The notes below the pieces were generated by a model, which worked only from the letters and a program-made list of their open reading frames with translations, ran no database searches and was not told where the DNA came from. A DNA stretch of 41,240 nt from Macrostomum lignano (Eukaryota): NCBI GenBank assembly GCA_002269645.1, contig NIVC01001706.1, forward strand, positions 1 to 41,240. Reading direction: 5' to 3'. Every line of letters begins with the position of its first letter. The stretch's first letter is position 1. Position numbers and translations under genes: made by a program. Of this stretch, positions 1-26,525 are shown in pieces.

Positions 1-31
1 ATAGTTTCAGGTTCGTAAATGCCTAATGTTT

Positions 32-595
32 CTATCGGTGGAGCTTTGGTTTGTCCAAACGTAATTCTTTTAATTCCATATCGGTAAAAGTTTCAACATC
101 TAAAATTCTATTTCTATCTTTTAAATATTTTTCATATAATTCAACCGCGGTTGATAATTCATGAATCGTTATCTCTCCGTCATCCAATATTTTTTGCACA
201 TATAAATATAATTGATTTTTATATTGCTTGCAACATCTCTTAAGATTTATATTTTTCCTTTCTTTTTTAAGATATAATTTAATTGCTAAAAGTATTGATA
301 AGTTCCTGATCAATTCAAAACCTGATATTGAGCCAATTGAAATACCTAAAAATAATTGAGATAAATTAAGAGTTGGAATAGATTGTAAAATACCTAAAAC
401 GATTACACATAACATTGATAAGCTTCCAAATCCAATATTGAAAAAGTCCATATTTCTTATATGGTTTGAAACTCTTCTTACTTTTTTAGCATATAAATCA
501 TAATCATAATTTATTCGATCAACATTACTTAACATCTGACCTTTACGTTGGTTGAACCGGTCGCGTTCCCATTTATCTGCTTCAGATACCGACAT
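32..595 (-). CDS. Viral hypothetical membrane protein (187 aa, two hydrophobic helices)
   Basis: Intact ORF; hydrophobic segments FFNIGFGSLSMLCVIVLGIL and LFLGISIGSISGFELI; co-oriented with the structural module. Confidence 0.6.
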   Translation of the reverse strand: MSVSEADKWERDRFNQRKGQMLSNVDRINYDYDLYAKKVRRVSNHIRNMDFFNIGFGSLSMLCVIVLGILQSIPTLNLSQLFLGISIGSISGFELIRNLSILLAIKLYLKKERKNINLKRCCKQYKNQLYLYVQKILDDGEITIHELSTAVELYEKYLKDRNRILDVETFTDMELKELRLDKPKLHR

Positions 596-657
596 TCTCG
601 TCTATTTTTAATAGCACCAAAATGAATTCCCGCGCTCTTTGGGGATTTGTCCCGAGC

Positions 658-906
658 TCAATAGGTATTGTATTGGAGTTTTCTTTCTTTTTTCTCCCAT
701 TTAAATCCTATTTTCCAAAACTCTTGAAGTATAATATGATTTTTTAATAACTTAATTAATTCTTGAAGCTTCTTATTATCCTGAACATTTACAGTACTAA
801 ATAAAAATTTGGTATGAGATTTGAATGTTTTTATATTTGATTCTTGTTTAGGAATAGGAATAATAACATTATTTTGCCGCATCGATGGAGTTCTACTAAA
901 AGCCAT
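658..906 (-). CDS. Small viral hypothetical protein (82 aa, MAFSRTP...)
   Basis: ATG at 906 has the AAAAATGG context used by other viral genes and lies 31 nt after the fibre stop; no recognisable motif. Confidence 0.4.
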   Translation of the reverse strand: MAFSRTPSMRQNNVIIPIPKQESNIKTFKSHTKFLFSTVNVQDNKKLQELIKLLKNHIILQEFWKIGFKWEKKERKLQYNTY

Positions 907-937
907 TTTATATAGAAATATTTTATATATAAATATT

Positions 938-2979
938 TTATATTTGAGTAGGAGGTTTTTCCAAATAAGCAGTAGAGGGAAAAACATAACCAAACGACGT
1001 ACTACCACATACAACTGCACCACGAATAAAATGTGCAGCATCCGCTCCACCAGTTCGAGCACCAAAACCCATAAGGGTTCCAGATTTATCTAAAGTTCCC
1101 CAAGTTCCACTATCATATGTGAAAACGTTCTGTCCAATGAGGGTAAAAGAATCACCAGCAACATTGTATGACTGTAATCGGTACCAAACCCTTTGATTTA
1201 AAATATTAACTTCAAATAAATGCCAATGCCGTTATCAATATTAGCATAGGCTACAGTTTGATCTGCGCCAGTATTAACATCCGCGCGGCTTGATCCGTCT
1301 GATTTTTTATTACTCCAAACAACTCCAAACCTATCAGTCCACTCACTAGCAAACACTATCAGCCCGGCGTCGGTTGATAATCCAGTTCCAAATTCCGATG
1401 TTGGACGTTGGTGACAGTATGCATAAAACCAAACCGCATCTGCACCATCTCCTGTAGAATTAGCAACTCGGAAAAAGAAAGACGCAGATATATTTTGAAA
1501 ATGTGTGAAATTGAATTGTAAAGCACCACTTACTCCAGAAGTTTCACGAGTAATTCTAGCGCCGTTTTGATAATCGATATAAGAAGCATCGCTAATTAAA
1601 GAACCGACTGGATATATATCTCCGGCGGTTGTTGGATTTTGATATCCAGACCAATTGCAAATTACTGGTTCGAACAAGGCCGCATCAATAGCAGGTATTC
1701 CATCCAATTTATTTTTATCGCTTCCAGACATTCTACCATTTGATGTTGGAGTAGCTAGCTGATCTACGTACGCTCGCGGAACTGCAGAAAGTATTTGAGT
1801 TGGCCAATTAAGATCTTGAATTTCAACACGGTGTTCAAATAATTGTATTTGACGAACCTCGATAGGTTGTGTACCGGTACCACCAGTTGGGAAGAATACG
1901 CTATAATATTTCCAAAAATTAGTCGTTAAATTAGATAGAGCAAATGATGTTGCTTGAACTGGTGATCCCGACGTAGTTAATGTTGTCCATGAATCGGTAG
2001 CAACATTTTTTGCGCGAACCGACCACCCGAGGGTATCTCAATTGTTTCACTGCCTGTAATTCTTAATTCAAATATTCTTCTATTATAACCTAAAAATTCA
2101 AATTGAATTTCCATATTGGTTGTGGTTCCGGTATTTGGTGACCATTGTGTCGCAAGGCTTCCATCTCCAACTCGAAAAGCTGTGTTGCCATTTTCAGATG
2201 CTGTAAGAACAACATCAGGATTTGAAGTATTTGATGTAAGCGGCGTGGTAAAAATATCGGCGTCGGTTGCATTAGCTCGCTCATTTACTTGGCCTAGAGT
2301 TATCGAGTCTGCGTTCTCTGTTCCAAATAATAAATTTGTTAATTTAAAATTATTCATATTAATATTTCCACTACGAGTGGCAACTTGATTATCGACATAG
2401 TTCTTATCAACCACTGAATCACTAGTTGTAATTGAAACATTTATAATTCGGTTGTTGCTCATATCTAGGTTTCCGGTTGCGGTGGTTTGAACATAACGTG
2501 AATCAGAATCAGTTCGAGAATAAGAATCAGTTACATCTCTTTTTAAATTTAATCCATTATCAACTTCGGTTTTGGTATAAGAATCGGCTACGTTCCGTTT
2601 CAAATTTAATGAATTATCAACTTCGGTTTTGGTATAAGAATCGGCTGTATTGCGTTTTAAATTTAATGAATTATCAACTTCGGTTTTGGTATAGAATCGG
2701 CTGTATTGCGTTTTAAATTTAATGAATTATCAACTTCGGTTTTGGTATAGGAATCGGCTACGTTCCGTTTCAGATTTAGTGAATCATCTATTTGAGTTTT
2801 AGTATAGGAATCTGCAACATTTCTTTTTAAATTTAGTTTAGTATCAACTTCACTTTTTTTATAACCTTCATCTCATTAATATATCGATTATCTCCAAATG
2901 TAACACTTATTCCACCAGATGTGCCACCACCACCACTACTTGTTGTTCCGTTCCATGAGGGTGTTCCAGAAAATAACAT
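938..2979 (-). CDS. Fibre/adhesin-like protein (~680 aa reconstructed): Gly-rich start, YTKxEVD repeats, F5/8C (discoidin)-like domain, C-terminal L-type lectin domain; 4 apparent 1-bp deletions
   Basis: Reading through frameshifts at ~2872, ~2693, ~2012 and ~1230 joins ORFs 1977-2603 and 1198-1731 into one frame. Motifs: NNRIINV..DKNYVD, ASENGNTAFRVGDGSLATQW..DSWTTL..WKYYSV..EVRQIQLF, ATPTSNGRMSGSDKNKLDGI, GADAVWFY..HWHLFEV..GFGARTGGADAAHFI. Confidence 0.75.
2523..2863 (-). repeat. Coding tandem repeat, 6 x 57 bp (YTKTEVDNSLNLKRNVADS)
   Basis: Directly visible units; the span of 341 equals 6x57 minus one base. Confidence 0.9.
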
Positions 2980-3041
2980 TTTTTACTGTCTATTTTATAG
3001 AGTCTAAAATCGCGTAGTCGCGGACTCCGTCCGATCGAACC

Positions 3042-3479
3042 TTAGTTCGCATGCTTTGCATGATATCTTAAATACTTCGGGGTTTCCTTCGAGTTATTAA
3101 TTTTATATAAAAAATACAACGCCGCTTGCCCGCAATAACTTTTATCAAAGGTTTGAAATTGTTCGTGATGATCTCCACATAAACGATTTTTAGTATGATT
3201 AAATTTATCTTTTATTTCCTGTAACGGAGGAAGCGCGTATGAATCAAAAAAATAAACAAGTTTTGGTTTTGAATAAACTGCTGACCAATGAACACCATTT
3301 TCTTTTGTTGTTTCAATATTAACAATGAAAGATCCATATTGTGGTAAGTCTTTGATCTCATCTCGCATAACACATCTGAATGGTTTTATTTTTAACTGCC
3401 TCGCCCAATTTGTTAATTCGATATTGCTTGTTGTGTCCGTTCCATATCTTTGTTTAAAATCATCCCACGTCATGGTCAT
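3042..3479 (-). CDS. Adenain-like cysteine (maturation) protease
   Basis: GVHW (His), FFDSY (Asp) and QTFDKSYCG (Gln, Cys) motifs in the order seen in adenoviral and Polinton proteases. Confidence 0.9.
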   Translation of the reverse strand: MTMTWDDFKQRYGTDTTSNIELTNWARQLKIKPFRCVMRDEIKDLPQYGSFIVNIETTKENGVHWSAVYSKPKLVYFFDSYALPPLQEIKDKFNHTKNRLCGDHHEQFQTFDKSYCGQAALYFLYKINNSKETPKYLRYHAKHAN

Positions 3480-3480
3480 T

Positions 3481-3690
3481 TTATGTTCCTGAAAAACTCT
3501 TGGTTTTAGTTAGTTTCGTAGGTGTGGGTTTTAACAATTCCTTTCTTATTTTATCAGCTTGTAACTGCCTTAATTTTGCTAGTTCTAGTTCGTAATTATC
3601 TTCAGCTTTTTTAACTTTTTCTGATTGTTTTTTTATTAAATTATTATTATTATCGTGCTTTGCACGCGAACATGTTGTTCGATTACCCAT
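3481..3690 (-). CDS. Small basic, coiled-coil-like viral hypothetical protein (69 aa)
   Basis: AAAAATG start; tightly packed between the minor capsid and protease genes. Confidence 0.45.
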   Translation of the reverse strand: MGNRTTCSRAKHDNNNNLIKKQSEKVKKAEDNYELELAKLRQLQADKIRKELLKPTPTKLTKTKSFSGT

Positions 3691-3700
3691 TTTTACAGTA

Positions 3701-4484
3701 CTAAACCTGTTTTATACGTAAAATTATTGTTATTGACTGCCCACCAAAACTTATTAATCTATCGCTTTCATCTACAATCCTAATATAAATTGATTGAACA
3801 TATATTGATTTAATGGTAATATATTGGGGTTTGGGGTGCAACAATCATTTTCTCTCCAATTGGAACAGCAAGAAATGGGATTGAATAAATAATTCCACGT
3901 TGAACCAAAACTCCGTTATCGTCTGTTATATAACCACCGTTTGAAATGTCGGTTGTTATATTAATTGTATTTACTCCACCCTCTATATTTCCAACTGTAT
4001 CACCGGTGCTTGATGTGGTAACTATTCGGGAATTAAATCCAAGTATGGTTCTGAGTGAATTTGCAATTGTGAAATCAACCTGATATCCGGATCCTAGTGA
4101 TAGTGTGAATCTGCCAGACGGTAAATCAACACCTATAACAATTGCTCCTGCTACCCAATCACCATTAGTTGTTAATTCTCCTTCTATATAAGCATTCAAA
4201 TCAGTATAGCTATACGCTCCTGGGTTAACGCTAAATGTTGTCCAATTGGCTCCGGAATCTTTAGAATATCTAAATTGATTATTTGTTGCATTAATTAATT
4301 GAGGCATGTTGAAAACCGAAAATAGTATTAAACCTATTTGATAACTTAGGCTTTGATCAAGTTGTAATGGATCGCGCAATTGAATCCGTTGCTCGCTGGT
4401 TGTCATTATAAACTGTAATGTTGTACTAAATTTTGAATTAGTTCGATCTACCAATTGTTTTATAGTATTTAAATTTGTAGTCAT
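3701..4484 (-). CDS. Minor capsid protein (penton, single jelly roll); frameshift(s) near 3790-3815
   Basis: Motifs NNQFRY, PGAYSYTDLNAYI, LGF, NTINITTDISNGGY, GEKMIVAP..IY. The shifted frame continues YIRIVDESDRLISFGGQSITIILRIKQV to TAG at 3701, the typical Polinton mCP C-terminus. Confidence 0.8.
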
Positions 4485-4501
4485 TTTTATAGTGGGAAAT
4501 T

Positions 4502-4625
4502 AATCGGACGAAGTCCGCGTTCCGAAGGAACGATCGAACGAAGTTCGCGACCCTATGGGGCGATCGTACCGAAGGTACGCGTGCTATGCACGATCGAACG
4601 AAGTTCGCGACCCTATGGGGCGATC
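4502..4625. repeat. Array of four 30-bp units, each CGATCG-hairpin-CGCG-hairpin (8 mini-hairpins)
   Basis: GAC-GAA-GTC, TTCC-GAA-GGAA, AAC-GAA-GTT, CCC-TAT-GGG, TACC-GAA-GGTA, TGC-TAT-GCA, AAC-GAA-GTT, CCC-TAT-GGG, with CGATC at 4531, 4561, 4591 and 4621. Confidence 0.9.
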
Positions 4626-5413
4626 CTCTTCTTCCTCATTATCTTCTTTTATCAAATTTGTTAAAATTCTATGTTTCCTTTCTAACCTCGGATTGATATA
4701 AATATGTTTGTATTGGCTATCATCCCAAATTTTTTTACACATACTTTTAAATGGTTTTGCATCCAATCCGGGATTAAATCTAGCGTGAATATTTTGTAGA
4801 TCATAGTTATCTAAATCAAACATTACACAACAGCTAGCATTCTTTTTTATAATCGATTCTAATTCTCTAAAGGATTGAGTAAGATAAAAAGCTCCAATTC
4901 CATCTCCTCTACCACTAACAAAAATTTCCTTTTGCAATTCTTGATCACCGTCATTAATACAATCATCAAAATAATTAGTGTTTTATCATGTTTTGGAATT
5001 TGATCATAGGCTAATCGGGTTGATACTCTAACAGTTGGGGCTCGATCGGACGAAGTCCGCGACCCTTCGGGGCGATCGGTGATGTTTTCTGGCTGTTGTG
5101 CCATTGTTTTACATAAATCCTCAATGTCTGCTAGATTAAATCGCGGTTCGTCATCATCCTCATATTGCTCATATGCTCTTAACATTCTAAACAAGACATC
5201 TTTTTTTAATTTGTTTTTTAATCCATGTTTAAGAAATTCATAATATTTTATTCTAGGTTTGTTAGTATAAATTATTAAATTATTATAGTCTAGCATTCCA
5301 TCGGTTGTTAACAGGTCATAAACAAAGTGTGTTTTTCCTTTACCTGATCCTCCGATTACTAAACAAAGAAAAGGATCATTTGGAAATATTTTATTGTGTT
5401 TTGCCTTTACCAT
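4584..5413 (-). CDS. A32/FtsK-like genome packaging ATPase; one 1-bp deletion at ~4968-4971
   Basis: Walker A GGSGKGKT. Restoring one T gives Walker B LIIFDD, followed by SGRG, YLTQSF and IIKKN, which joins ORFs 4859-5413 and 4584-4937. Confidence 0.9.
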
Positions 5414-5497
5414 TTTTAAAGAAATAATTTAAATAGGCGCGACGGTCGGAGACCTGCGACACTAAAGTGGTGCGACGTGCTTTGCACTGCACTCATT

Positions 5498-6970
5498 TTA
5501 CAATGGTGCGTCCCGAACAATCGTGCCATCAGCTTTAGCAATTGACATATATTCCTCTAGAAACAATACGTGTGCGTCAAGTGCCTGATTACCAGTTTTA
5601 TTAATCTCTAACATATAATTAAGTCCAATATTGGCTACGTTTTCTTTCTGTGCCGTTAGATCATAAACAACCACTGGATGAATGTTTAGAAACTCTGTGG
5701 GTGTGTACTGAGGGACGGCATATGCTTCATTTTTGGCATAATCTTGATAATATTTTATAAAATCATTAACATTATTATTTGCTATATTTAAATTTAGGGG
5801 GTCTTTAACCGGATAATATTGATCATCAACCTGCAGGCGGATATTCTGAACATTAAACTCGTTAATAGCTGCAGCCGCATTGTCTGTTGCGGTGGCTGCT
5901 TGTTCTGCTATGGCACCGGATTGAAGCCAATATAAATCCCCATTTGCTCTTTTACTCCTTCTATTTGTTATCTTAAACCAAACAAAAATATATCTCACCC
6001 GACGTTTTGATGTCAGTATTTGCCACTGGAATGAATCCTGGTTATTATTAATGGTTCGCATAAAATGTCGACGATTCAAATAAAATATTTCCTGATCATG
6101 CGTTAACTGATTATCGATGTGTTTTAAAAGTGGGGCTGTTACCTCAATAGTTGGTACGACTAATTGAATTGAATCTATACGAACTGCTATATCGGTTGAA
6201 ATTGAGGTTCCATAAAGTATCCTAGGCTGATATCCACCAGATATTTGCAACTGTATCCCAAATTTTAATCCTTTCCATACCCGATTTGGTGAGAAAAACC
6301 CAAATAGTGGAAAGATTGAAAAGTCCTGCTCATATGCTGTTGCTGTGGTTAAAACCGCGACTGGGAATTTATTCTGACGATCTATAAAACCAGTATTAAT
6401 ATCTTTTGTATTAGTCATAGTGGTTACAACTGGAACTATGTTTGTATTAAGGTAAACAATTAGCGCTGCAGTATCTGCACCGGCTGCGTTTTGTACATTA
6501 GGGAAAACTACTGCTTGACCGTTACCTTTATCCGGCATCCACCCAACATTATCACCAACTTGTTTTGATAAATAAGTATAATTTAAATGTTTCAAAACTC
6601 CATTAATCTCTGCGGGGTTTGATGATGTCTCAACCTCAGCACCATTAACAGTTAGTTGAGCTTGGGAAAAACATTTATAAAACCAATCATTTTCTATTAT
6701 TATTCCGGATCGATCTGCGATATCTCCGGCTGCAAGAGCAGTTCCATCATTTCTAGTATACAACCATCTAACGCGGAAAAACGCATTTTTCATATCCAAT
6801 ATAGTGTTGGTTGCGCCGATGTCAAAAGTTACCGTTCCAGTAGTAAAGTTATTTGAATTATCACTTGTTGGTAGGGTATAATTTAAATCTCTTGCTCTGA
6901 CCTCATTAATATACTGTCGGTGCTTTTTGAAATGAAATTTATCACTCCACATAGTTTTTGTTTCAGCCAT
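5498..6970 (-). CDS. Major capsid protein (double jelly roll, Polinton type), 490 aa, intact
   Basis: Size, beta-rich composition, N-terminal VTFDI..TILDMKNAFFRV and CFSQAQLTVNGAEVE, C-terminal NIRLQVDDQYYP and PVVVYDLT; adjacent to ATPase and mCP. Confidence 0.85.
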   Translation of the reverse strand: MAETKTMWSDKFHFKKHRQYINEVRARDLNYTLPTSDNSNNFTTGTVTFDIGATNTILDMKNAFFRVRWLYTRNDGTALAAGDIADRSGIIIENDWFYKCFSQAQLTVNGAEVETSSNPAEINGVLKHLNYTYLSKQVGDNVGWMPDKGNGQAVVFPNVQNAAGADTAALIVYLNTNIVPVVTTMTNTKDINTGFIDRQNKFPVAVLTTATAYEQDFSIFPLFGFFSPNRVWKGLKFGIQLQISGGYQPRILYGTSISTDIAVRIDSIQLVVPTIEVTAPLLKHIDNQLTHDQEIFYLNRRHFMRTINNNQDSFQWQILTSKRRVRYIFVWFKITNRRSKRANGDLYWLQSGAIAEQAATATDNAAAAINEFNVQNIRLQVDDQYYPVKDPLNLNIANNNVNDFIKYYQDYAKNEAYAVPQYTPTEFLNIHPVVVYDLTAQKENVANIGLNYMLEINKTGNQALDAHVLFLEEYMSIAKADGTIVRDAPL

Positions 6971-7004
6971 TTTTTTAAGTTAAAAAAGTTTTTTATGTTA
7001 AAAA

Positions 7005-7676
7005 ATGAGTCAATTTATGGACGTTGATGGAGAGTTAGCGATTTATAAAGAGAAGCAAAGATATTCTGATTTTGTTAGAAATTTACAAAAAAGAAAGTTA
7101 GGAATACAATTAGCGGGTGAAAGATTTGCTGCTCCTTTTGTTAATCCTATTACTGGGAAAATTAGTGAACTAGAAAAAACAGATAAAGATCTTCTGGAAA
7201 AAATTGCTAAAAATACTGAGCCAAAAGAGGATGAAATTTTAGATGAGCCGCCTACTTATGAGACTGATCAAGCAATATTTAGAGTTGCAGAAATTAGACG
7301 TGAAGAGATTAGGGGTGGAGTTGAACAATTTCCAAGAGATGCGCCACGTAGTATTGCTGCGACAGATTTAGGTGGTGGTAATTATCGAATTGGTAACGTT
7401 GTTAAAGATCGAAATGAACTATATAGAGAATTGGGCGGAGCATTTAATATTATTACGAACCCTAGGGTAAAATTTAACCCCGATTTATATACTAGGGATG
7501 AATTAATAAGTGCTAGAATTTTTTATGATGAGTTAGGAGGAGCTGTTAAAAATACCAGCTTGTATAAATGGATTGTTAATTCTATAAATAACAAACCAGC
7601 TGTTGGTGATGGATTTAAAACACCGCGAAAACTTGTTTTAGCTGCTGCGAAAGCTGCTGGACATACTGGAGTTTAA
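7005..7676 (+). CDS. Polinton hypothetical protein (223 aa), divergent from MCP
   Basis: Intact ORF with AAAAAATG start. The FNIITNPR..YTRDEL..IFYDELGG segment resembles, from memory, a conserved Polinton ORF found upstream of PLA2 genes. Confidence 0.65.
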   Translation: MSQFMDVDGELAIYKEKQRYSDFVRNLQKRKLGIQLAGERFAAPFVNPITGKISELEKTDKDLLEKIAKNTEPKEDEILDEPPTYETDQAIFRVAEIRREEIRGGVEQFPRDAPRSIAATDLGGGNYRIGNVVKDRNELYRELGGAFNIITNPRVKFNPDLYTRDELISARIFYDELGGAVKNTSLYKWIVNSINNKPAVGDGFKTPRKLVLAAAKAAGHTGV

Positions 7677-7703
7677 TTGATTGTTAAATTTATTTTTTAT
7701 AAC

Positions 7704-8273
7704 ATGGATGAAACAAAAATTTGTACTACGTGTAGAATTGAGAAGCCGATGACTAAAGAATTTTTTTGTTGGAGAAATGACACAAAAAAATTTAAAAATC
7801 TTTGTCGATCTTGTGAGAAAGTTAAATGCACTATGTGGAGAATAAACAATAAAGATAAATGTAATAAATATGCAAAAAATAAATATCGCACTGATGAAAA
7901 TTTCAAAAATATTAGTCTAATTAGAGCTAAAATAACTTGGGCATTGAGAACTTTTCATGACAAACATTATATCTCATATCTTGGTTGCACAAAAGAATTC
8001 TTTTTTGATTGGTTAAATTTCACAAGAAATTATTATGTTCCAAAAAATTATACTGGAAAGTTAGATATTGATCATTTCATTCCCGCTTCTTCATTTAATT
8101 ACAAAGACGATGATCAGATTAAAAAGTCTGAAAATTGGAGAAATAAAAGATACTTAACTAGCATAGATAATAACTATAAAAAAGTTAAGCAACCAACCAT
8201 TGAAGAATTTGCAAAACAATTGGTGCTTTCATGTATTTTTAAGGCTATTAAAAATGAACCAAATAGTGTTTGA
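7704..8273 (+). CDS. Free-standing HNH (His-Me finger) endonuclease with N-terminal CxxC..CxxC zinc finger
   Basis: CTTC and CRSC pairs; YLGCT..FFDWL; DIDHFIPASSF..NWRN..LTSIDN, matching the HIDHIxPxSSFD..NLQPL..EN type of viral homing nucleases. ATG at 7704; the stop overlaps the next gene's start. Confidence 0.8.
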   Translation: MDETKICTTCRIEKPMTKEFFCWRNDTKKFKNLCRSCEKVKCTMWRINNKDKCNKYAKNKYRTDENFKNISLIRAKITWALRTFHDKHYISYLGCTKEFFFDWLNFTRNYYVPKNYTGKLDIDHFIPASSFNYKDDDQIKKSENWRNKRYLTSIDNNYKKVKQPTIEEFAKQLVLSCIFKAIKNEPNSV

Positions 8274-9860
8274 AGGAGGATTTTTAGACTTACAAAAAGG
8301 ATTAACGAGCTTACCACCAATCTTTACTACTGGTAAATATACAGGGGAACTACACCTACCATCAATGAACTTCACAGGTTAACCCGTGGCCTGAGTGAGG
8401 AAGGCAATGTCCTTGCTAGTCACTATTTGTGGCGACATCTCCAAATTGCGTGAAACCCGTCATACAGCTTCAAGTACCACTTCAAGTGAGAAATCTTTTG
8501 AAGGAACAGAGGTAACTCCTCTTCCCAATCGGACTTCGTCCGCGAACCTATGGTTCGATGGTAACAAGCTTGAAGACACGGTGGCAATGCGCAGCCAAGC
8601 TCCTAAGTATTTTAAATATAAGGAGAAGGTTCAGAGAGCAGACGGAGATGGGCGGTAATTATCGCCGCTTAAGGTGTGCTCCAGCCTCATTCGAAAGATT
8701 GAGGGTAAACAGCCGGGGACTAGACTGGATTTAAGATTAAATCCTGACAATACTCCAAAATCTGATTCAATTCCAATAAATGGGATTGATTGGTTAGCAT
8801 ACTATCACGACTTAGCATATAGAGATGCTGACAAGAACCCGCCCGAGGAAGCATTAAGATTAAAACATGAAGCCGATCAAAAAATGATTCAAGGATTAGA
8901 TAACTTGCAGGGATTATCGGTAGGTCAAAAATTAACTAGGTGGATGGTTAAAAAGATCTTGCAGTCTAAAGTTAAATTTGGTTTGGGAATTAATTATAAT
9001 CAACATGGAAATAATTGTGTTGAGTGTTTACTATTAAGTGGCAGTGGGTTAAGTTATGATGAGGCAAAGATTCTTCATAAAGAATATCGAAAACCTAAAT
9101 TTTATAGAAAAATCATGAACTTCAAAAAGAATGAAATTTGGTATGCTGATTTAATGTCGATGCCGAAAGATCTGGGATATAAATATATCTTAACCATATT
9201 AGATGGTTTTACTCGATACGCGTGGGCTGTTCCTTTGAAATCCAAAAAAGGAGAGGATGTTGCTGCTGCTTTTAGAAGTCTTGGAGAAAAAAGCGAACGT
9301 TTGTGTGTTGACGAAGGAAAAGAATTTTACAATCCTCACATGTATAAATTGTATCATTTTGAAAAAGGACAAGAAAGGAAAAAGGACGCGAATGGGAGTA
9401 TATTAATAAAATTTATTCTATTTATGGAGAGAGTAAAAACGCATTAATAGAAAGATTTAATAGAACTTTAGGTAAGAAATTATGGTTTCAGTTTAGTCTT
9501 AATGCTAACCAAAAATGGGTAAAAATATTACCAGACGTAGTGAAAGATTATAACAATTCATATCATTCGGCGATAAAGATGACTCCTCAACAAGCTTATA
9601 ACAATCCTGAAAATGTTAGGGTTACTTTTGGAAAATTTGAAAAAAAGAAAACTAAAGATTTTAAAGTTGGTGATTCTGTTTATATCTATAAATGGAAAGA
9701 TAAGTTTGAAAAGGGAAGAAAAGGATATTGGAAAATAAGTGAGAAATTTACTATCAGTAAAGTTTTAAATACCAATCCTACAACCTATATAATTGCTGAT
9801 AAGGATGGTGAAGAAATATTGGGTTCTTTTTATGAGAACCAGATAATGTCTGCGAACTAA
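8254..9860 (+). CDS. Parvovirus-type phospholipase A2 (PLA2X) fused to a retroviral-like (rve) integrase; exons 8254-8379 and 8713-9860; 1-bp deletion at ~9394-9396
   Basis: Joining the exons gives ELHLPSMNFTG|PGTRLDLRL..PINGIDWLAYYHDLAY (Ca loop plus HD). The frame runs on into LHKEYRKPKFYRK..WYADL..LTILDGFTRYAWAVPLKSK..CVDEGKEF, then after the shift IERFNRTL..YNNSYHSAIKMTP..FKVGDSV..GSFYE (DDE triad). Confidence 0.87.
8380..8712 (+). ncRNA. Group I self-splicing intron, IC1-type, 333 nt, no internal homing ORF
   Basis: 5' exon ends in U and the intron ends in G. P1: CAGGU/GCCUG (8375-8379/8389-8393) with U.G at the splice site. P3: CAUCUCC/GGAGAUG (8436-8442/8644-8650). P AAAUUGCGUGAAA (8443), Q AAUGCGCAGC (8586), R GUUCAGAGAGCAGA (8629), S AAGGUGUGCUCC (8671). 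P7: G-A(bulge)-GAGCA/UGCUCC. P5abc with A-rich bulge and GAAA loop; P9 with GAAA loop. Removal restores the GPGT motif in frame. Confidence 0.93.
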
Positions 9861-9870
9861 GTTCAAACAG

Positions 9871-10095
9871 TTACTTAAGACAACATGGTAGTAAATTTTT
9901 TATTACAAACAAAAACAATATTATTACTATTATTGTTACTAATATTATTATTGACATTTGTTCAACTGTTATCAAACTTAAATTTTCATTAAGTTCATTA
10001 ATTGGAACATTTCCGATGTAGGAATAGTTTACCTTCATTTTTTTATATATATTTTTCACAATAAATGTCGTTTCTGTTATAGAATAATAGTTCAT
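9871..10095 (-). CDS. Small single-pass membrane protein (74 aa), viral hypothetical
   Basis: AAAAAATG start; strongly hydrophobic IIILVTIIVIILFLFVI followed by KNLLPCCLK. Confidence 0.4.
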   Translation of the reverse strand: MNYYSITETTFIVKNIYKKMKVNYSYIGNVPINELNENLSLITVEQMSIIILVTIIVIILFLFVIKNLLPCCLK

Positions 10096-10111
10096 TTTTT
10101 AAATATTTTTT

Positions 10112-10426
10112 TCACATAAAAATTTCACTTTCATTCTCTGATTCACTGGTTTCATATGAACTATTTGTTGATTCGGAATCTGTTGATCTAACCTCCCAAT
10201 CATCCGAATTTAAATAATCTCCAAGTTGAAATATTAACTCACCCTCTTGTTCTAAATCATACATCTCATCTAGCTCTAATGGATAAAGTTTTAGGTCGTG
10301 CTTGTCGTCATATTTTAAATAAACTTCATCAATTATTCCATTCAAAATATGTTGTTTTATTATCTCTGCATTTTTAGCAACGGTCTCAAAAGTATCACTA
10401 ACAGAAAAGGTGTAAACTCGGTTCAT
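10112..10426 (-). CDS. Acidic viral hypothetical protein (104 aa)
   Basis: AAAAAATG start, intact ORF, Ser/Glu-rich tail. Confidence 0.55.
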   Translation of the reverse strand: MNRVYTFSVSDTFETVAKNAEIIKQHILNGIIDEVYLKYDDKHDLKLYPLELDEMYDLEQEGELIFQLGDYLNSDDWEVRSTDSESTNSSYETSESENESEIFM

Positions 10427-10516
10427 TTTTTATAACAGAAAAAGACCCTTCGCGCCTGCGGCGCGTGCGACGGGTTCTAGAAAGTTTGTGTGTGTTGGAG
10501 AGAGTTGGAAGCGTTG

Positions 10517-17887: not shown

Positions 17888-19302
17888 TCATTCTGAGTGG
17901 CAGAACAGCCTTGACGCTCCCGCAGCCCAGCCATCAAACTGTGATGGCGTGAGGAAATTCCTCAACTCAGTCCAGCTGGTCTCTGATCCTCTGACTCGCT
18001 TGACCAACTCGTCAGCCATTGTCCTGTGCAATAGCAGGCAGCTTGAAGGCTGCGAATGCGGCTCTTCTGCGAAGTTTGTCCCATTGCTGCTGCTGGTACT
18101 GTTGCCTCTCCGCAAAAGTCTAGCAGTCCCCGGATGTTTTTGCCTTGCAAGACCTGAAATTGTGTTTTATTCATTGTCTTCAAGTTCTTGCAGCTCTTGT
18201 CAAGCCAATGACAAGCTACTGTCTTTGGGACACTGTCTTGGGCATTGCCTTAACAGCACTTTGGGGCACCTGCCTGTCTTAACGACAGGGGCATTGTCTT
18301 TGGGGCACCTATCTTTGAGGCATACTGTCTTTGAGCACTGTCTGGGGTTGAGGCACTGTCCCAGGGACACTGTCTTTGAGCACCTGTCTAAGCGACACTG
18401 TCTTTGAGCACCTGTCTAAGCGACACTGTCTTTGAGCACCTGTCTAAGCGACACTGTCTTTGGGCACCTGTCTTAGGGCACTGTCTTTAGGACACTGTCT
18501 TAGGGGCACTGTCTAAAGGCCTGTCTTAGGGGCACTGTCTTGGGCAGGGGTACTGTCCCAGGGGAACTGTATTTGGTGCTGATTTTGGGGAGGGGCATCG
18601 CATATCTGCATGCGCTGGAATCGCCACTGAAAAACCAGCAATGCGGCTCTGCAACACCCAACAGCTGTGACTGACTGCCAGCTGACCTTGCTGACGGACA
18701 CTGGCAGCAGTGACATTGTGCCTCTCAGCCAGAGCAGCGCCCACACCGCCTCCGGCAGTGTGCAGAGCCACCAGCCGGACATTCAGCGCGGGCCAGTCTC
18801 CCACAAACAGCAGGTAGGGTGTCCTCGGGCAGCGCTCCAGGTACCAGGCGGTGGCCCATCTCAGCATGGCCGCGTCAGTTTGCCACTCCAATGCAGCGTT
18901 GAGCATCAAATCCTGCCGTCTGTGGAACTCCTCAACTACCAGGTCTCTGGGGGCCGAAGCGGCGTAGCGCACGAAGAACACGAGCTGCGCGGCGCCGCTC
19001 TGCAGGCGCCACTTTCTGCGCCACAGACGGCGCAGTTGATCCCGGCCTGCCAGATCCGCCTGCGACGAGGCGACCGCAACCAGCAGGTTCGGGGCGGCTT
19101 GAAAACATTCGCCCCAGGACTCCAGCCGGAGCGACGGGTGCAGCCGCCGCTGGCGCTCCGCCGTCAACTCGTCGACCGACGTGGCGCCCCGACTGTTAGT
19201 GTCGAATAGCAGGAAGTGAAATACCGGATAGCACAGGCCGAGGATGGCCAGAAATGCGATGCAGGATAGCAGGCTCCGGTTTTTGAGTTGCATTTTTTGC
19301 AT
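17888..19302 (-). CDS. GT31 (beta-1,3-galactosyltransferase-like) type II membrane protein; exon 1 ~19302-18550, last exon 18153-17888
   Basis: N-terminal TM; LLVAVASS..GRDQLRRLW, LVFFV, VVEEF..QDL and WATAWYLERCP motifs follow the GT31 pattern; acceptor TTTCAG at 18154. The exon 1 donor and frame are unresolved. Confidence 0.65.
18221..18545 (+). repeat. Intronic degenerate repeat (GGGCACTGTCTT core, with 26-bp exact copies)
   Basis: Visible tandem units between the two GT31 coding segments. Confidence 0.8.
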
Positions 19303-22551: not shown

Positions 22552-25500
22552 TCAGCCCGTGGCAACGTGTCCAACAACCTCACTCTGAACGAAGCCACCC
22601 TGAATGTCGGATGCCGGATTGGCCAGCGAATCAGTGTCGTCTCCACCTTCAAAAGTTCGACTTCGATTAGTGACGCCCCTCTGGACGGCGCCAGGGCTTT
22701 CGTCGCTGCTAATCAAATTTCTGGTGTCCTCCGATGCCCTCCGATCAGCGTAGGGTGCATTGACGTACCCAGCCAGGGCTCCGGCGCTCAGGGCGCTGGC
22801 CATCTGTCTGACCAGAGCGCCCGCGCTGCCCACAGCTGCTGCAGACATCTGACGCGTGAACACTCCGGTTCGGGTGCCGGCTCGAGCTCGAAGGTTCCTG
22901 CCGATCTCTTCTCTGATTTCGTCTGCTTCGTCGCGAATCGGTTCCATTAGCAGGCGTTCGAGCACGTTCTCCAGGGTGATGATGCCGCGAACTTGCCCGG
23001 TTTCTGTGCTGAACACCACCGCCATGTGGCCTGCGGGTGTTCGCAGCTCATTGTGTGGTACTGCCTGTGCCAGCACTGTCACCCCACTGTCTCCCCTGTC
23101 ACTCCACTGTCACCCCACTGTCTCTCATGTCACTCCACTGTCACTCCACTGTCTCCCCACTGTCTCTCATGTCACTCCACTGTCTCCCCACTGTCTCCCC
23201 ACTGTCTCTCATGTCACTCCACTGTCACCCCACTGTCTCCCCTGTCACTCCACTGTCTCTCCTGTCACCCCACTGTCTCTCCTGTCACTCCACTAGCTGT
23301 CTCCCCTGTCACTCCACTGTCTCCCCAGTCACCCCACTGTCTCTCCACTGTCTCTCCACTGTCTCTCCTGTCACTCCACTGTCACCCCACTGTCTCCTGT
23401 CACTCCACTGTCACCCCACTGTCTCTCCTGTCACTCCACTGTCACCCCACTGTCTCCCCTGTCACTCCACTGTCACCTCACTGTCTCTCCTGTCACTCCA
23501 CTGTCACCCCACTGTCTCCCCTGTCACTCCACTGTCACCTCACTGTCTCTCCTGTCACTCCACTAGCTGTCTCTCCTGTCTCTCCTGTCACTCCATTGTC
23601 TCTCCTGTCACTCCACTAGCTGTCTCTCCTGTCTCCCCTGTCACTCCACTGTCTCCCCAGTCACCCCACTGTCTCTCCACTGTCTCTCCACTGTCTTCCC
23701 AGTCACTCCACTGTCACCCCACTGTCTCCTGTCACTCCACTGTCACCCCACTGTCTCTCCTGTCACTCCACTGTCACCCCACTGTCTCCCCTGTCACTCC
23801 ACTGTCACCTCACTGTCTCTCCTGTCACTCCACTGTCACCCCACTGTCTCCCCTGTCACTCCACTGTCACCTCACTGTCTCTCCTGTCACTCCACTAGCT
23901 GTCTCTCCTGTCTCCCCAGTCACCCCACTGTCTCCCCAGTCACCCCCACTGTCTCCCCAGTCACCCCCACTGTCTCCCCAGTCACCCCACTGTCTCCCGT
24001 CACCCCACTGTCTCCCCAGTCACCCCACTTCCCCTGCCAAGGCAAGTAAGAAGTCTCACTCTTTCCCTGTTGAAACACATTCAGCAGGTCGTACAGAGGA
24101 GTCTGGCAGGGTACATACGGCATCTCACGGAAGCACTTCTTGTCGGCAATGATTCTAGCAAAAGACACTTCAGCCTTGTTGGCGTAGATCAGCAGCATCT
24201 TAGTCAGCAGGTGGCCTCTGATATCGTTGCGATTGTCGCCGTGAAAAATCGGCACCCTGGAGTGCGCATTGGCGATGATTTTCAATCGCACAGAGTCGGT
24301 TAGGGCACTCGAATCCGACAGCATGAACACCTCATCTATCGGGTACAGGCGTCTTCGGCTGGTACGCTGGACAGCTCCAGGGCGCCTTTGATGATCGCCA
24401 CTTCGTCGAAGGTCAGGACGCTGCGCTGTGCGGCTGCAACGCCGTCCTCGATGATGTTTCTCGACGAGGCGGTGACGGCCGCCTGCGACGCCACCGCCTG
24501 CTGCGGGTCCTGGCCACTCTCGACTAGATAGTCGCCTTCTCGACGAACTCTGGGACCGTGGAATCCGACTAGAGCTTTTAGCTCTTCTTTTTTGAATACG
24601 GTCTCGTGATTGGCGCCCAGTAGCAGGTCCAGCAGCTTTGACAAAGGAAATGCGATGGGACAAAGCAGCGCCATAAAGAGGTAGACCAGGCTGCAAGGTG
24701 TGTTGTAGTGTGGAGAGCTTCAATATTGTACTGCTCAAGCCTCTAAATCAAGCCTCGAGTCTTAAAAAGTGAAATTATGAAGAGAAAATGACTTACGGCA
24801 GACAGTAGTACCCGATAGCGAGACCGAACTTGGTGCACAGCGCCTGTGGAATCACTCTGAAATATTTTTGACTACTTATTTAAGTACTCGTACCTGGAAA
24901 AAGTAACATTAAGTTTCAAGTTTTTCGAGATATAATTTATTTTATTAAAGTCCAAACTCCATCAAATTCAGCTGTTTTATTAGCGTAACGCCCCCACCCC
25001 AACTCAGCTGTTTTATTAGCGTCAACACCCCCATCCCAATTTAGTAGTTTTATTAGCGTCAACCCCACCTCTACCCAATTCAGCTGTTTTATTTGCGTCA
25101 ATACCCCACCCCAATTCAGCTGTTTTATTAGCGTCGATGCCCCCATCCCAATTTAGTTGTTTTATTAGCGTCAATACCCCACCACAACTCAGCTGTTTTA
25201 TTAGCGTCAATACCCCACCCCAACTCAGCTGTTTTATTAGCGTCAATACCCCACCCCAACTCAGCTGTTTTATTAGCGTCAATACCCCACCCCAACTCAG
25301 CTGTTTTATTAGCATCAACACCCCACCCCAATTCAGTTGTTTTATTAGCATCAACACCCTCACCCCAATTCAGTTATTTTATTAGCATCAACACCCCCAC
25401 CCCAATTCAGCAGTTTTATTAGCATCAACACCCCCACCCCAATTCAGCTGTTTTATTAGCGTCAACATCCCCATCCCAATTCAGTTGTTTTATTAGCGTC

Positions 25501-26525
25501 AAACCCACCTCCACCAAATTCAGCTGTTTTATTAGCGTCAATACCCCCCCCCCAACTCAGCTGTTTTATTAGCATCAACACCCCCACCCAAATTCAATTG
25601 TTTTATAAGCGTCAACACCTTATCTTTTACATTAGTCTATTATTGAACGAACAGCAGCAGTTCACGATGTACTTGCACTTACTCGCCAAAGAACAGCACA
25701 GCAGTGACTGACACCACAATAGCAATAATCGGATCGGATACCCGATCTAGAAATATTGGCATCGCTTCAACACAGGCCGCATTGCCAAGAAGTAGAGTCA
25801 CTAACAGCCAATGGTGTCGTTTTATTATCGGCAACAAGCGTTTCGCGTATTTTTTTACGCTTCCATTGCCCGAATCGGCGAGTACTTTTAGGCTGAGAGG
25901 GTCCAAGCTCAATAAGCCTATAGTGAGACCGCTCATTAGACCTGTGGAAATCGAAGAATCCATAGCGTAAAAATGGACACAATATCGTACTTTAGTTAGG
26001 TAAATTTTTAGTTAAAATTTTTTTTCAAAAACCAGAAAGCGACAGAACTGGATATTTTCAAGATAACACATACAGTTATTAAATCTGCAGGTCTAGCTGA
26101 CACCAACAGATATCACCTGTCTAGGTCAAGGTGCACCTTTATAAAGCTGTCAACCTGTTAGTCGAATGTGAACTATGTCTATAAAGCTCATTGATTAGAA
26201 TCTGGTTTAATTAAACCGAACCACTGAATGAAGGATCGTTCATAATGCTCGGGGAAGTTAAAACTTTGTACTTATCTTTATGACTTCATACCATCTTCCC
26301 TATCATCATAGTGTCTCCCATATCGCTGCACTGTCCAAGTTGAAAATTTATTCATCAGACAGCAGCCAGCTTACCCGCTCCAATCACTAAGCCGGTGTAA
26401 ATTCCTAAATAGATCCAGAACCAGGTGTCTTCAGGCGTCAAAATGTGATTAGCTTCGTGATACTCCGTGCCATTACACCACAGCTCGTTTGGCGCTGTCA
26501 GAGTACAATTCAACGGAATGCCCAT
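22552..26525 (-). CDS. CNNM: CNNM/DUF21-CBS metal (Mg2+) transporter family protein; exons 26525-26375, 25941-25683, 24856-24797, 24690-24060, 23030-22552; 1-bp deletion at ~24342
   Basis: Spliced reading gives AG|LMSGLTIGLLSLD..HWLLVTLLLGNAAC.EAMPIFLD..LFFGE|VIPQALC, LTFDEVAIIKGALEL..TPIDEVFML, HSRVPIF and QGKS|HMAVV..GIITLENVLE; all junctions are GT-AG with matching phases. Confidence 0.92.
23073..24030 (+). repeat. Intronic minisatellite, ~10-11-bp units CTGTCACTCCA / CTGTCACCCCA / CTGTCTCCC
   Basis: Visible tandem units filling CNNM intron 4. Confidence 0.9.
24962..25618 (+). repeat. Intronic minisatellite, ~35-bp unit AATTCAGCTGTTTTATTAGCGTCAACACCCCACCC
   Basis: Visible tandem units in CNNM intron 2. 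Confidence 0.9.

Follow-up and report, generated by a model that had tools for sequence, protein, structure and literature searches.

A type II restriction-like nuclease as the probable homing enzyme of group I introns in Polinton-like elements of Macrostomum lignano

A nuclease related to the type II restriction enzyme Eco47II, carried in an exchangeable gene slot or inside an intron, likely cuts the word GGNCC at the insertion site of group I introns in Polinton-like elements of Macrostomum lignano; the intron would shield its carrier from that cut and spread by repair. On balance, and somewhat less firmly, we favor the broader view that a type II enzyme lacking a methylase became a Polinton homing endonuclease, that its specificity comes from purging of the element genome and not from a long recognition site, and that an HNH-like nuclease is its rival. 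The starting point was contig NIVC01001706.1, which was analysed over its whole length of 41,240 nt and is referred to here as "the window".

Positions 1..10480 of the window hold the right part of a Polinton-like element that is truncated by the contig start and marked by an AT-rich block, an rve integrase and a weak A32 match; we call it and its close relatives family 1. ORFs of integrase, ATPase-like and capsid-sized types lie in these first 10.5 kb. When the window ORFs were searched against Pfam, the rve integrase reached E 2e-7, just under the cut-off, the A32 ATPase match was weak (E 0.012), and the capsid-sized ORF of family 1 matched no family. A full-length family-1 relative on contig C3031 has 70-bp inverted repeats with 17.8 kb between them, so that terminal inverted repeats, a length of 15-20 kb and a retroviral-type integrase, features expected of Polintons (Mavericks), are all present. 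As to the other Polinton hallmarks, protein-primed polymerase B, double jelly-roll capsid and A32 ATPase, PF21738 and PF04665 scored above the Pfam cut-off in family 2, a second group of elements in the same genome. The polymerase-sized ORF of a full-length family-1 copy (865 aa), which we take to be the polymerase, yielded only an Endonuclease VII domain (PF02945, 31.1 bits; L187:8831-10000), which adds one more nuclease to the element. Polinton polymerases with nuclease domains are already known, according to the accessible part of a preprint (bioRxiv 10.1101/2023.08.22.554363).

Several other features of the window were recorded in passing. An acidic ORF of 104 aa by the right end of the element (10112-10426, minus strand) has no family match. 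Palindromic inserts of ~30-36 nt occur repeatedly, often in frame, in the ATPase region, at gene ends and in intron loops (window ~4500-5000, minus strand, and 8533-8562; in other copies also where ORF 7005 and the slot end), and in locus L220 such an insert forms a long tandem run; they are possibly a small mobile hairpin element. At 18526-19302 and 22552-25963 (minus strand), amid long simple repeats, stand what are presumably host gene fragments resembling a glycosyltransferase and a CBS-domain metal transporter.

The intron interrupts a phospholipase (PLA2) gene that is also an integrase gene. The last codon of exon 1 (8254..8379, plus strand) specifies the first Gly in the Gly-Pro-Gly loop of PLA2, and exon 2 (8713..9860, plus strand) encodes the PLA2 catalytic part and runs in frame into the rve integrase. 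A preliminary description of the window had recognised the intron-bearing PLA2 gene, to which the fusion must now be added. PLA2 and integrase share a single reading frame in both families and in the metagenome contig L171, and the full-length integrase fusion would therefore depend on splicing of the intron. The natural intron-less copy L093 scores 33.4 bits for PF08398 and E 2e-6 for rve. Exon 2 of the window copy carries a frameshift near 9.4 kb; most copies have ~400 open codons there.

The window intron (type A; 8380..8712, plus strand) is 333 nt long, separates the Gly codon of the loop from its Pro codon and scores 64.6 bits against Rfam RF00028 (gathering score 50; E 2.7e-14). The preliminary description called it a group I intron without a nuclease, and this holds: its 83-aa frame (8407-8658) is ribozyme core that happens to be in frame. 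Its limits were placed from the PLA2 reading frame on both sides, from the U-G pair of P1 and from P10. P1 consists of 5 bp, the last base of exon 1 (T8379) pairing with G8389; P10, P3, P4, P7, P8 and P9 are all able to form, the last five with full or near-full pairing, and the guanosine-binding pair is present. Type-A introns were found in the window and in 117 copies among L001-L148. The window intron ends in G8712, but of the 114 type-A introns scored, 85 finish with A; the P9.0 pairing and the guanosine-binding pair are preserved in them. A terminal A is, to our knowledge, very rare in group I introns, an intron of Coxiella reportedly being one case. Type B (324-334 nt; L059:3067-3400 and 23 more copies of family 1) is a different intron that occupies the same 5' site and has only a peripheral part in common with type A. 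Its core, which Rfam missed, is group IE-like as classed by eye, and the Pro-Gly codons fall just within its likeliest 3' end. No spliced joint was found when assembled contigs of six public runs were compared with the window and L014, though the runs are only guessed to be RNA and contigs cannot show absence. Some of these contigs hold the intron start (window 8386) after exon-1 sequences that differ from those of families 1 and 2, which may point to additional PLA2 genes with this intron.

At the empty site the Gly and Pro codons always spell GGNCC, and the intron breaks the word. GGNCC stands at all three empty family-1 alleles and at every other empty allele examined; elsewhere in these elements it is nearly absent. 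The window element (10,480 bases) contains none against 12.5 expected and a full-length intron-less family-1 copy two against 19.4. Two family-2 stretches contain one against 10.6 and none against 10.5, the left limits of both having been chosen after the data were seen, so that sites just left of them are omitted. Together the four stretches have 3 GGNCC where 53 are expected, and two of the three are the intron site; the full-length copy retains one extra site. GGNCC is the most depleted of the 256 gapped 4-mers in each stretch, and it remains the lowest of 256 in all four under stricter Markov expectations (5.2, 9.1, 4.7 and 6.2). Codon-order shuffles gave counts as low as those observed in 1, 2, 7 and 8 cases per 1000. 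Across 148 family-1 loci, which are not independent, one further GGNCC was found in 545,097 element-aligned bases, and 56 lie outside the aligned parts, three junction sites included. The loss is visible in the proteins of both families: two intron-less elements have 1 Gly-Pro dipeptide against 7 and 6 Pro-Gly, and the Gly-Pro stands only at the PLA2 loop.

Other DNA served as a control for the loss. GGNCC occurs at the Markov expectation in six host flanks, and the 20 loci of family 3, another group of elements in this genome, keep 8-60 sites each; family 3 gave no match to either nuclease, and no Rfam intron was found in the 11 loci scanned. In codon-shuffle controls, which comprise one family and two contigs (four family-3 loci and two viral contigs), the observed count was reached 63-888 times per 1000. 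Milder depletion was seen in three controls, L201 (15 against 23 expected, rank 2), L206 (13 against 28, rank 8) and the viral contig L219 (10 against 17, rank 4), which have 35-53% fewer GGNCC than expected. Two other words, CCNGG and CTNAG, are also somewhat low.

The enzyme that best fits this word is encoded by a 167-aa ORF that replaces 7720-8229 in copies where the HNH-like gene is absent. We refer to this as the free form of the Eco47II-like nuclease, and to its homologue inside family-2 introns as the intronic form. Against the Pfam family RE_Eco47II (PF09553) the intronic form scores 26.2 bits (cut-off 25.9), the free form 20.6, below the cut-off, and two homologues 34.2 and 30.2. The protein's neighbors in a protein atlas are Eco47II and EcoO109I clusters (0.91-0.94). 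A predicted structure (pLDDT 89) matches EcoO109I and AvaII best (E 3e-4 and 4e-4) and superposes with Z 9.8 and rmsd 3.6 over 166 aligned residues; the model is consistent with a PD-(D/E)XK fold and active site. Residues E49, D65, E76 and K78 are kept in 26/26 free and 5/5 intronic intact frames. The free gene is intact in 26 of 37 copies; dN/dS of the nuclease is 0.23-0.27. EcoO109I recognises RGGNCCY and AvaII GGWCC; homologous restriction enzymes are not known to keep the same site specificity reliably. The available text of PMC10305163 ties Eco47II homologues to GGNCC, and that of PMC3424549 lists Eco47II as a bacterial type II family. No methyltransferase was found among the 32 ORFs scanned, which were taken from a complete family-1 copy and from portions of two copies of family 2. 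Searches of phages and plasmids (tblastn) and a viral-contig scan gave no match to the Eco47II-like protein, so its tree has no outgroup and is unrooted.

In family 2 the same kind of nuclease lies within the intron. The PLA2 of this family is ~60% identical to that of family 1, and a related intron, mostly 836-895 nt long, interrupts it at the same codon. All 17 loci that were found from Rfam hits (L150-L166) carry an Eco47II-like homologue, ~65% identical and intact or broken, within the intron. Comparison of natural sequences of both families places the ORF in the loop of a small 5' hairpin (window 8416..8435, plus strand), from which it reads through into the ribozyme core. Among 20 further loci, the intron of L220 is damaged and lacks the ORF, and several others retain the ORF in a truncated intron; ~20 family-2 copies in the same genome have no intron. 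Contig L171, which has a third PLA2-integrase gene, likewise carries the nuclease inside an intron, and this intron interrupts PLA2 at the same position. Intron core is read through at the C-terminal end in 12 of 24 database homologues, most of the others being fragments; except for L171, their context was deduced from these C-terminal tails. The free and intronic forms of this genome are weakly supported sisters in one tree (87/87), and a second tree does not resolve the two. A constraint uniting all intron-borne forms on the unrooted tree was not rejected (p-AU 0.26), and we therefore dropped the claim that the free form descended out of an intron.

To follow the slot and the intron across copies, we surveyed 148 family-1 loci, assembled in two sets of 30 and 118. 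Copy counts are lower bounds; the 764-Mb host genome has many element copies, its assembly may include near-duplicates, and a set of 118 complete loci collapses to 80 at 1% difference. The slot (7720..8229, plus strand) is sharply bounded: DNA likeness between the window and nuclease-swapped copies ends at 7719 and returns at 8230, and occupants have the start context and last codons in common. Its left flank is a 223-aa ORF without an assigned function (7005..7676, plus strand). HNH-like copies comprise 83 with a type-A intron, 16 with type B, 3 without an intron and 4 that are truncated; Eco47II-like copies (37/148) comprise 30 with type A, 7 with type B and none without an intron. The remaining five (two with an acidic ORF, one with an HNH fragment, two truncated) all bear the intron. 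The intron is thus present in 141 of 144 scorable copies regardless of the slot gene, and its type is independent of that gene (p = 0.80). Side by side with these, a third slot gene, a very acidic ORF of 155 aa without a Pfam match, replaces the front of the HNH-like gene (L076:2371-2838, L124, L223); that it is a DNA mimic directed against the nucleases is a guess.

Slot genes move between backgrounds. The slot gene changes at least 11 times on the left flank tree and at least 14 times on the right (shuffled, 16.3 and 16.4), intron type changes 14 times (shuffled, 14.6 and 15.0), and the free Eco47II-like gene is not tightly linked to either intron type. Recombination is high along the whole element (r2 0.07 at 100-200 nt), and neither short linkage tracts nor slot shuffling therefore proves homing. 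Short tracts around the intron had been considered as a homing signature and were dropped, the background linkage being equally short.

These observations can be assembled into a mechanism. The Eco47II-like enzyme would cut GGNCC, its predicted site, in replicating elements, and escape from it would select for the removal of all other, dispensable sites. The Gly-Pro codons of the PLA2 loop would be unable to change; in parvovirus-type PLA2 domains this loop is required for entry. If so, the intron would be the only route by which the last site could be removed: it removes GGNCC at the DNA level and, if spliced, would restore the PLA2 gene and its fused integrase. An empty allele that met the enzyme would receive one cut, at the intron site, and be repaired from an intron-bearing copy, and a five-base cutter would thereby act on these elements like a single-site homing endonuclease. 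With the intron near fixation in family 1, few targets would be left for the free enzyme, which may let the HNH-like gene take its slot. A true GGNCC cutter would cut host DNA too, which calls for an extra assumption, for example expression only during element replication. Several facts count against the mechanism: the host flanks keep their GGNCC sites, the intron-less family-2 copies persist, the Pfam score barely passes, and the contrast between 0 of 37 Eco47II-like and 3 of 102 HNH-like copies without an intron is not significant (p = 0.56).

In family 2, in L171 and probably in half of the homologues the gene is housed within the intron. This is the usual homing layout, and it speaks against an unlikely alternative: that the Eco47II-like enzyme serves to attack competing elements or the DNA of the host, as a restriction system lacking a methylase, with site loss and intron affording self-protection only and the intron spreading by selection and ordinary recombination instead of homing. 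That account draws on the loss of sites across whole elements, as expected from a general five-base cutter, and on the lack of a methylase among the ORFs scanned and the high recombination everywhere; chlorovirus restriction enzymes, for their part, degrade host DNA. Use as a weapon and homing have most steps in common, and both could be true.

The preliminary description had paired the intron with the other slot gene. It correctly placed that gene (7704..8273, plus strand; 189 aa) between the 7005 ORF and PLA2, overlapping the PLA2 start; the overlap at the start codon (8254) measures 20 nt, and the stop is indeed 106 nt before the 5' splice site. As to its nature, the label of HNH nuclease (beta-beta-alpha-metal type) is reasonable on the sequence features, with reservations. 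An N-terminal zinc finger with two CxxC pairs is found in 73/73 intact copies, and a DH..N..DN pattern, presumably the catalytic residues, in 72/73; the pattern aligns with HIDH..NLQ..N of phage relatives. A limited local search matched the HNH-like profile to phage proteins at E 1e-21 to 1e-11, with the zinc finger and the HIDH..N..N layout in common, and there were weak matches to proteins annotated as endonuclease VII or HNH. On the other side, searching Pfam with the window ORF up to E 1 gave neither HNH nor Endonuclease VII, PHROG gave only endonuclease VII at E 0.51, a homologue search with the protein found no match, and PDB sequence searches with the HNH-like and Eco47II-like alignments gave no meaningful match. 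L172 proved to be an unrelated weak match. Atlas neighbors, which serve only as leads, were unnamed viral clusters (0.95) and HNH clusters (0.87-0.89). The fold model is poor (pLDDT 60 overall, <50 in the catalytic domain), and fold searches with it were consequently uninformative: the zinc finger alone matches Hpy99I, and BFVD gave weak HNH matches.

Could this protein be the intron's collaborator, cutting intron-less PLA2 near the insertion site alone or as a second enzyme? We consider it improbable. Its closeness to the intron site recalls F-CphI beside psbA, as described in the accessible part of PMC6083498, and the gene is the commoner occupant of the slot, scattered on the flank trees; 73 of its 106 copies keep an intact frame, and selection on it is purifying (dN/dS 0.47 overall, 0.32 in the catalytic part, 0.61 in the N-terminal half). 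The survey of co-occurrence nonetheless argues against a homing pair. HNH-like gene and intron are distributed independently: 99 of 102 scorable HNH-like copies and 37 of 37 Eco47II-like copies have the intron (Fisher p = 0.56), so that the intron is fixed where the gene is missing, and no match to the gene was found at the family-2 intron loci or other loci examined. All three intron-less copies carry the HNH-like gene and represent two lineages: one is L063, which falls within the main group, and the other is L093 with its near-identical partner L105. In L063 and L093 an intact frame with the catalytic pattern stands beside an unbroken site, contrary to the protected allele that collaborative homing predicts. 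Moreover, the N-terminal half, which is probably the DNA-binding part, is the most variable (identity down to ~55%), and the empty intron site is invariant. The HNH-like gene probably encodes a selfish nuclease that competes with the Eco47II-like gene for the slot and alternates with it there, its target probably being other than the empty intron site. The earlier concept, in which a nuclease targets the intron site and the intron protects its carrier, looks right; the enzyme named for it looks wrong, and the predicted site of the Eco47II-like nuclease matches the empty intron site.

That both slot genes are bystanders, relic nucleases shuffled by recombination beside an old intron near fixation, with GGNCC lost through some other cause such as host defence or mutation bias, is very improbable: it accords with the low linkage everywhere, the random placement of intron type on the flank trees and the mild depletion of GGNCC in three controls and of CCNGG and CTNAG, but purifying selection acts on both genes, GGNCC persists in family 3 of this same genome, and the enzyme family, the depleted word and the intron site would have to match by chance.

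If homing by the Eco47II-like enzyme is correct, it offers a direct path from restriction enzyme to homing endonuclease that needs no lengthening of the site, and it presents both states of the proposed path to a mobile intron, nuclease free beside the intron and embedded in it, for one enzyme, one site and one genome. It would also imply that copies of these Polintons come together and recombine in the form of replicating DNA. Some 190 copies are available for reading the history of nuclease and intron. Group I introns in protist Polinton-like viruses were known already; the full-text literature searched, which takes in few subscription journals, gave no account of such a nuclease, of its site or of the arrangement seen here. 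Collaborative homing has been put forward as a hypothesis for different genes in viruses of this kind in the accessible portions of PMC11296320 and bioRxiv 10.64898/2026.10.13.758929.

The closest functional parallel is the F-CphI/psbA intron system of cyanophage S-PM2, where collaborative homing, as portrayed in the parts of PMC6083498 and PMC3984707 at hand, resembles the working proposed here. That system belongs to a phage; ours involves a eukaryotic virus-like element, a restriction-enzyme family and a predicted five-base site that is made rare by element-wide loss, and a rival gene shares the slot. I-Ssp6803I is likewise a restriction-enzyme fold, PD-(D/E)XK, encoded in a group I intron. 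It reads a long site of 17 bp according to the text available of PMC3424549, unlike the PF09553 nuclease with its five-base avoidance signature; the modeled fold of the latter also appears nearest to EcoO109I and AvaII. In protist Polinton-like viruses, the accessible sections of PMC12220804 describe ORF-less group I introns of 309-376 nt together with free HNH or GIY-YIG genes. Those introns interrupt a short gene that precedes the capsid gene, and those sections name no nuclease partner, whereas here the gene, the site and a candidate enzyme are defined. With Eco47II, EcoO109I and AvaII themselves the Eco47II-like nuclease would have the Pfam family, fold, catalytic residues and GGNCC core in common; it differs from them in being shorter (167 aa), in having no methylase partner among the ORFs scanned and in being mobile with an intron.
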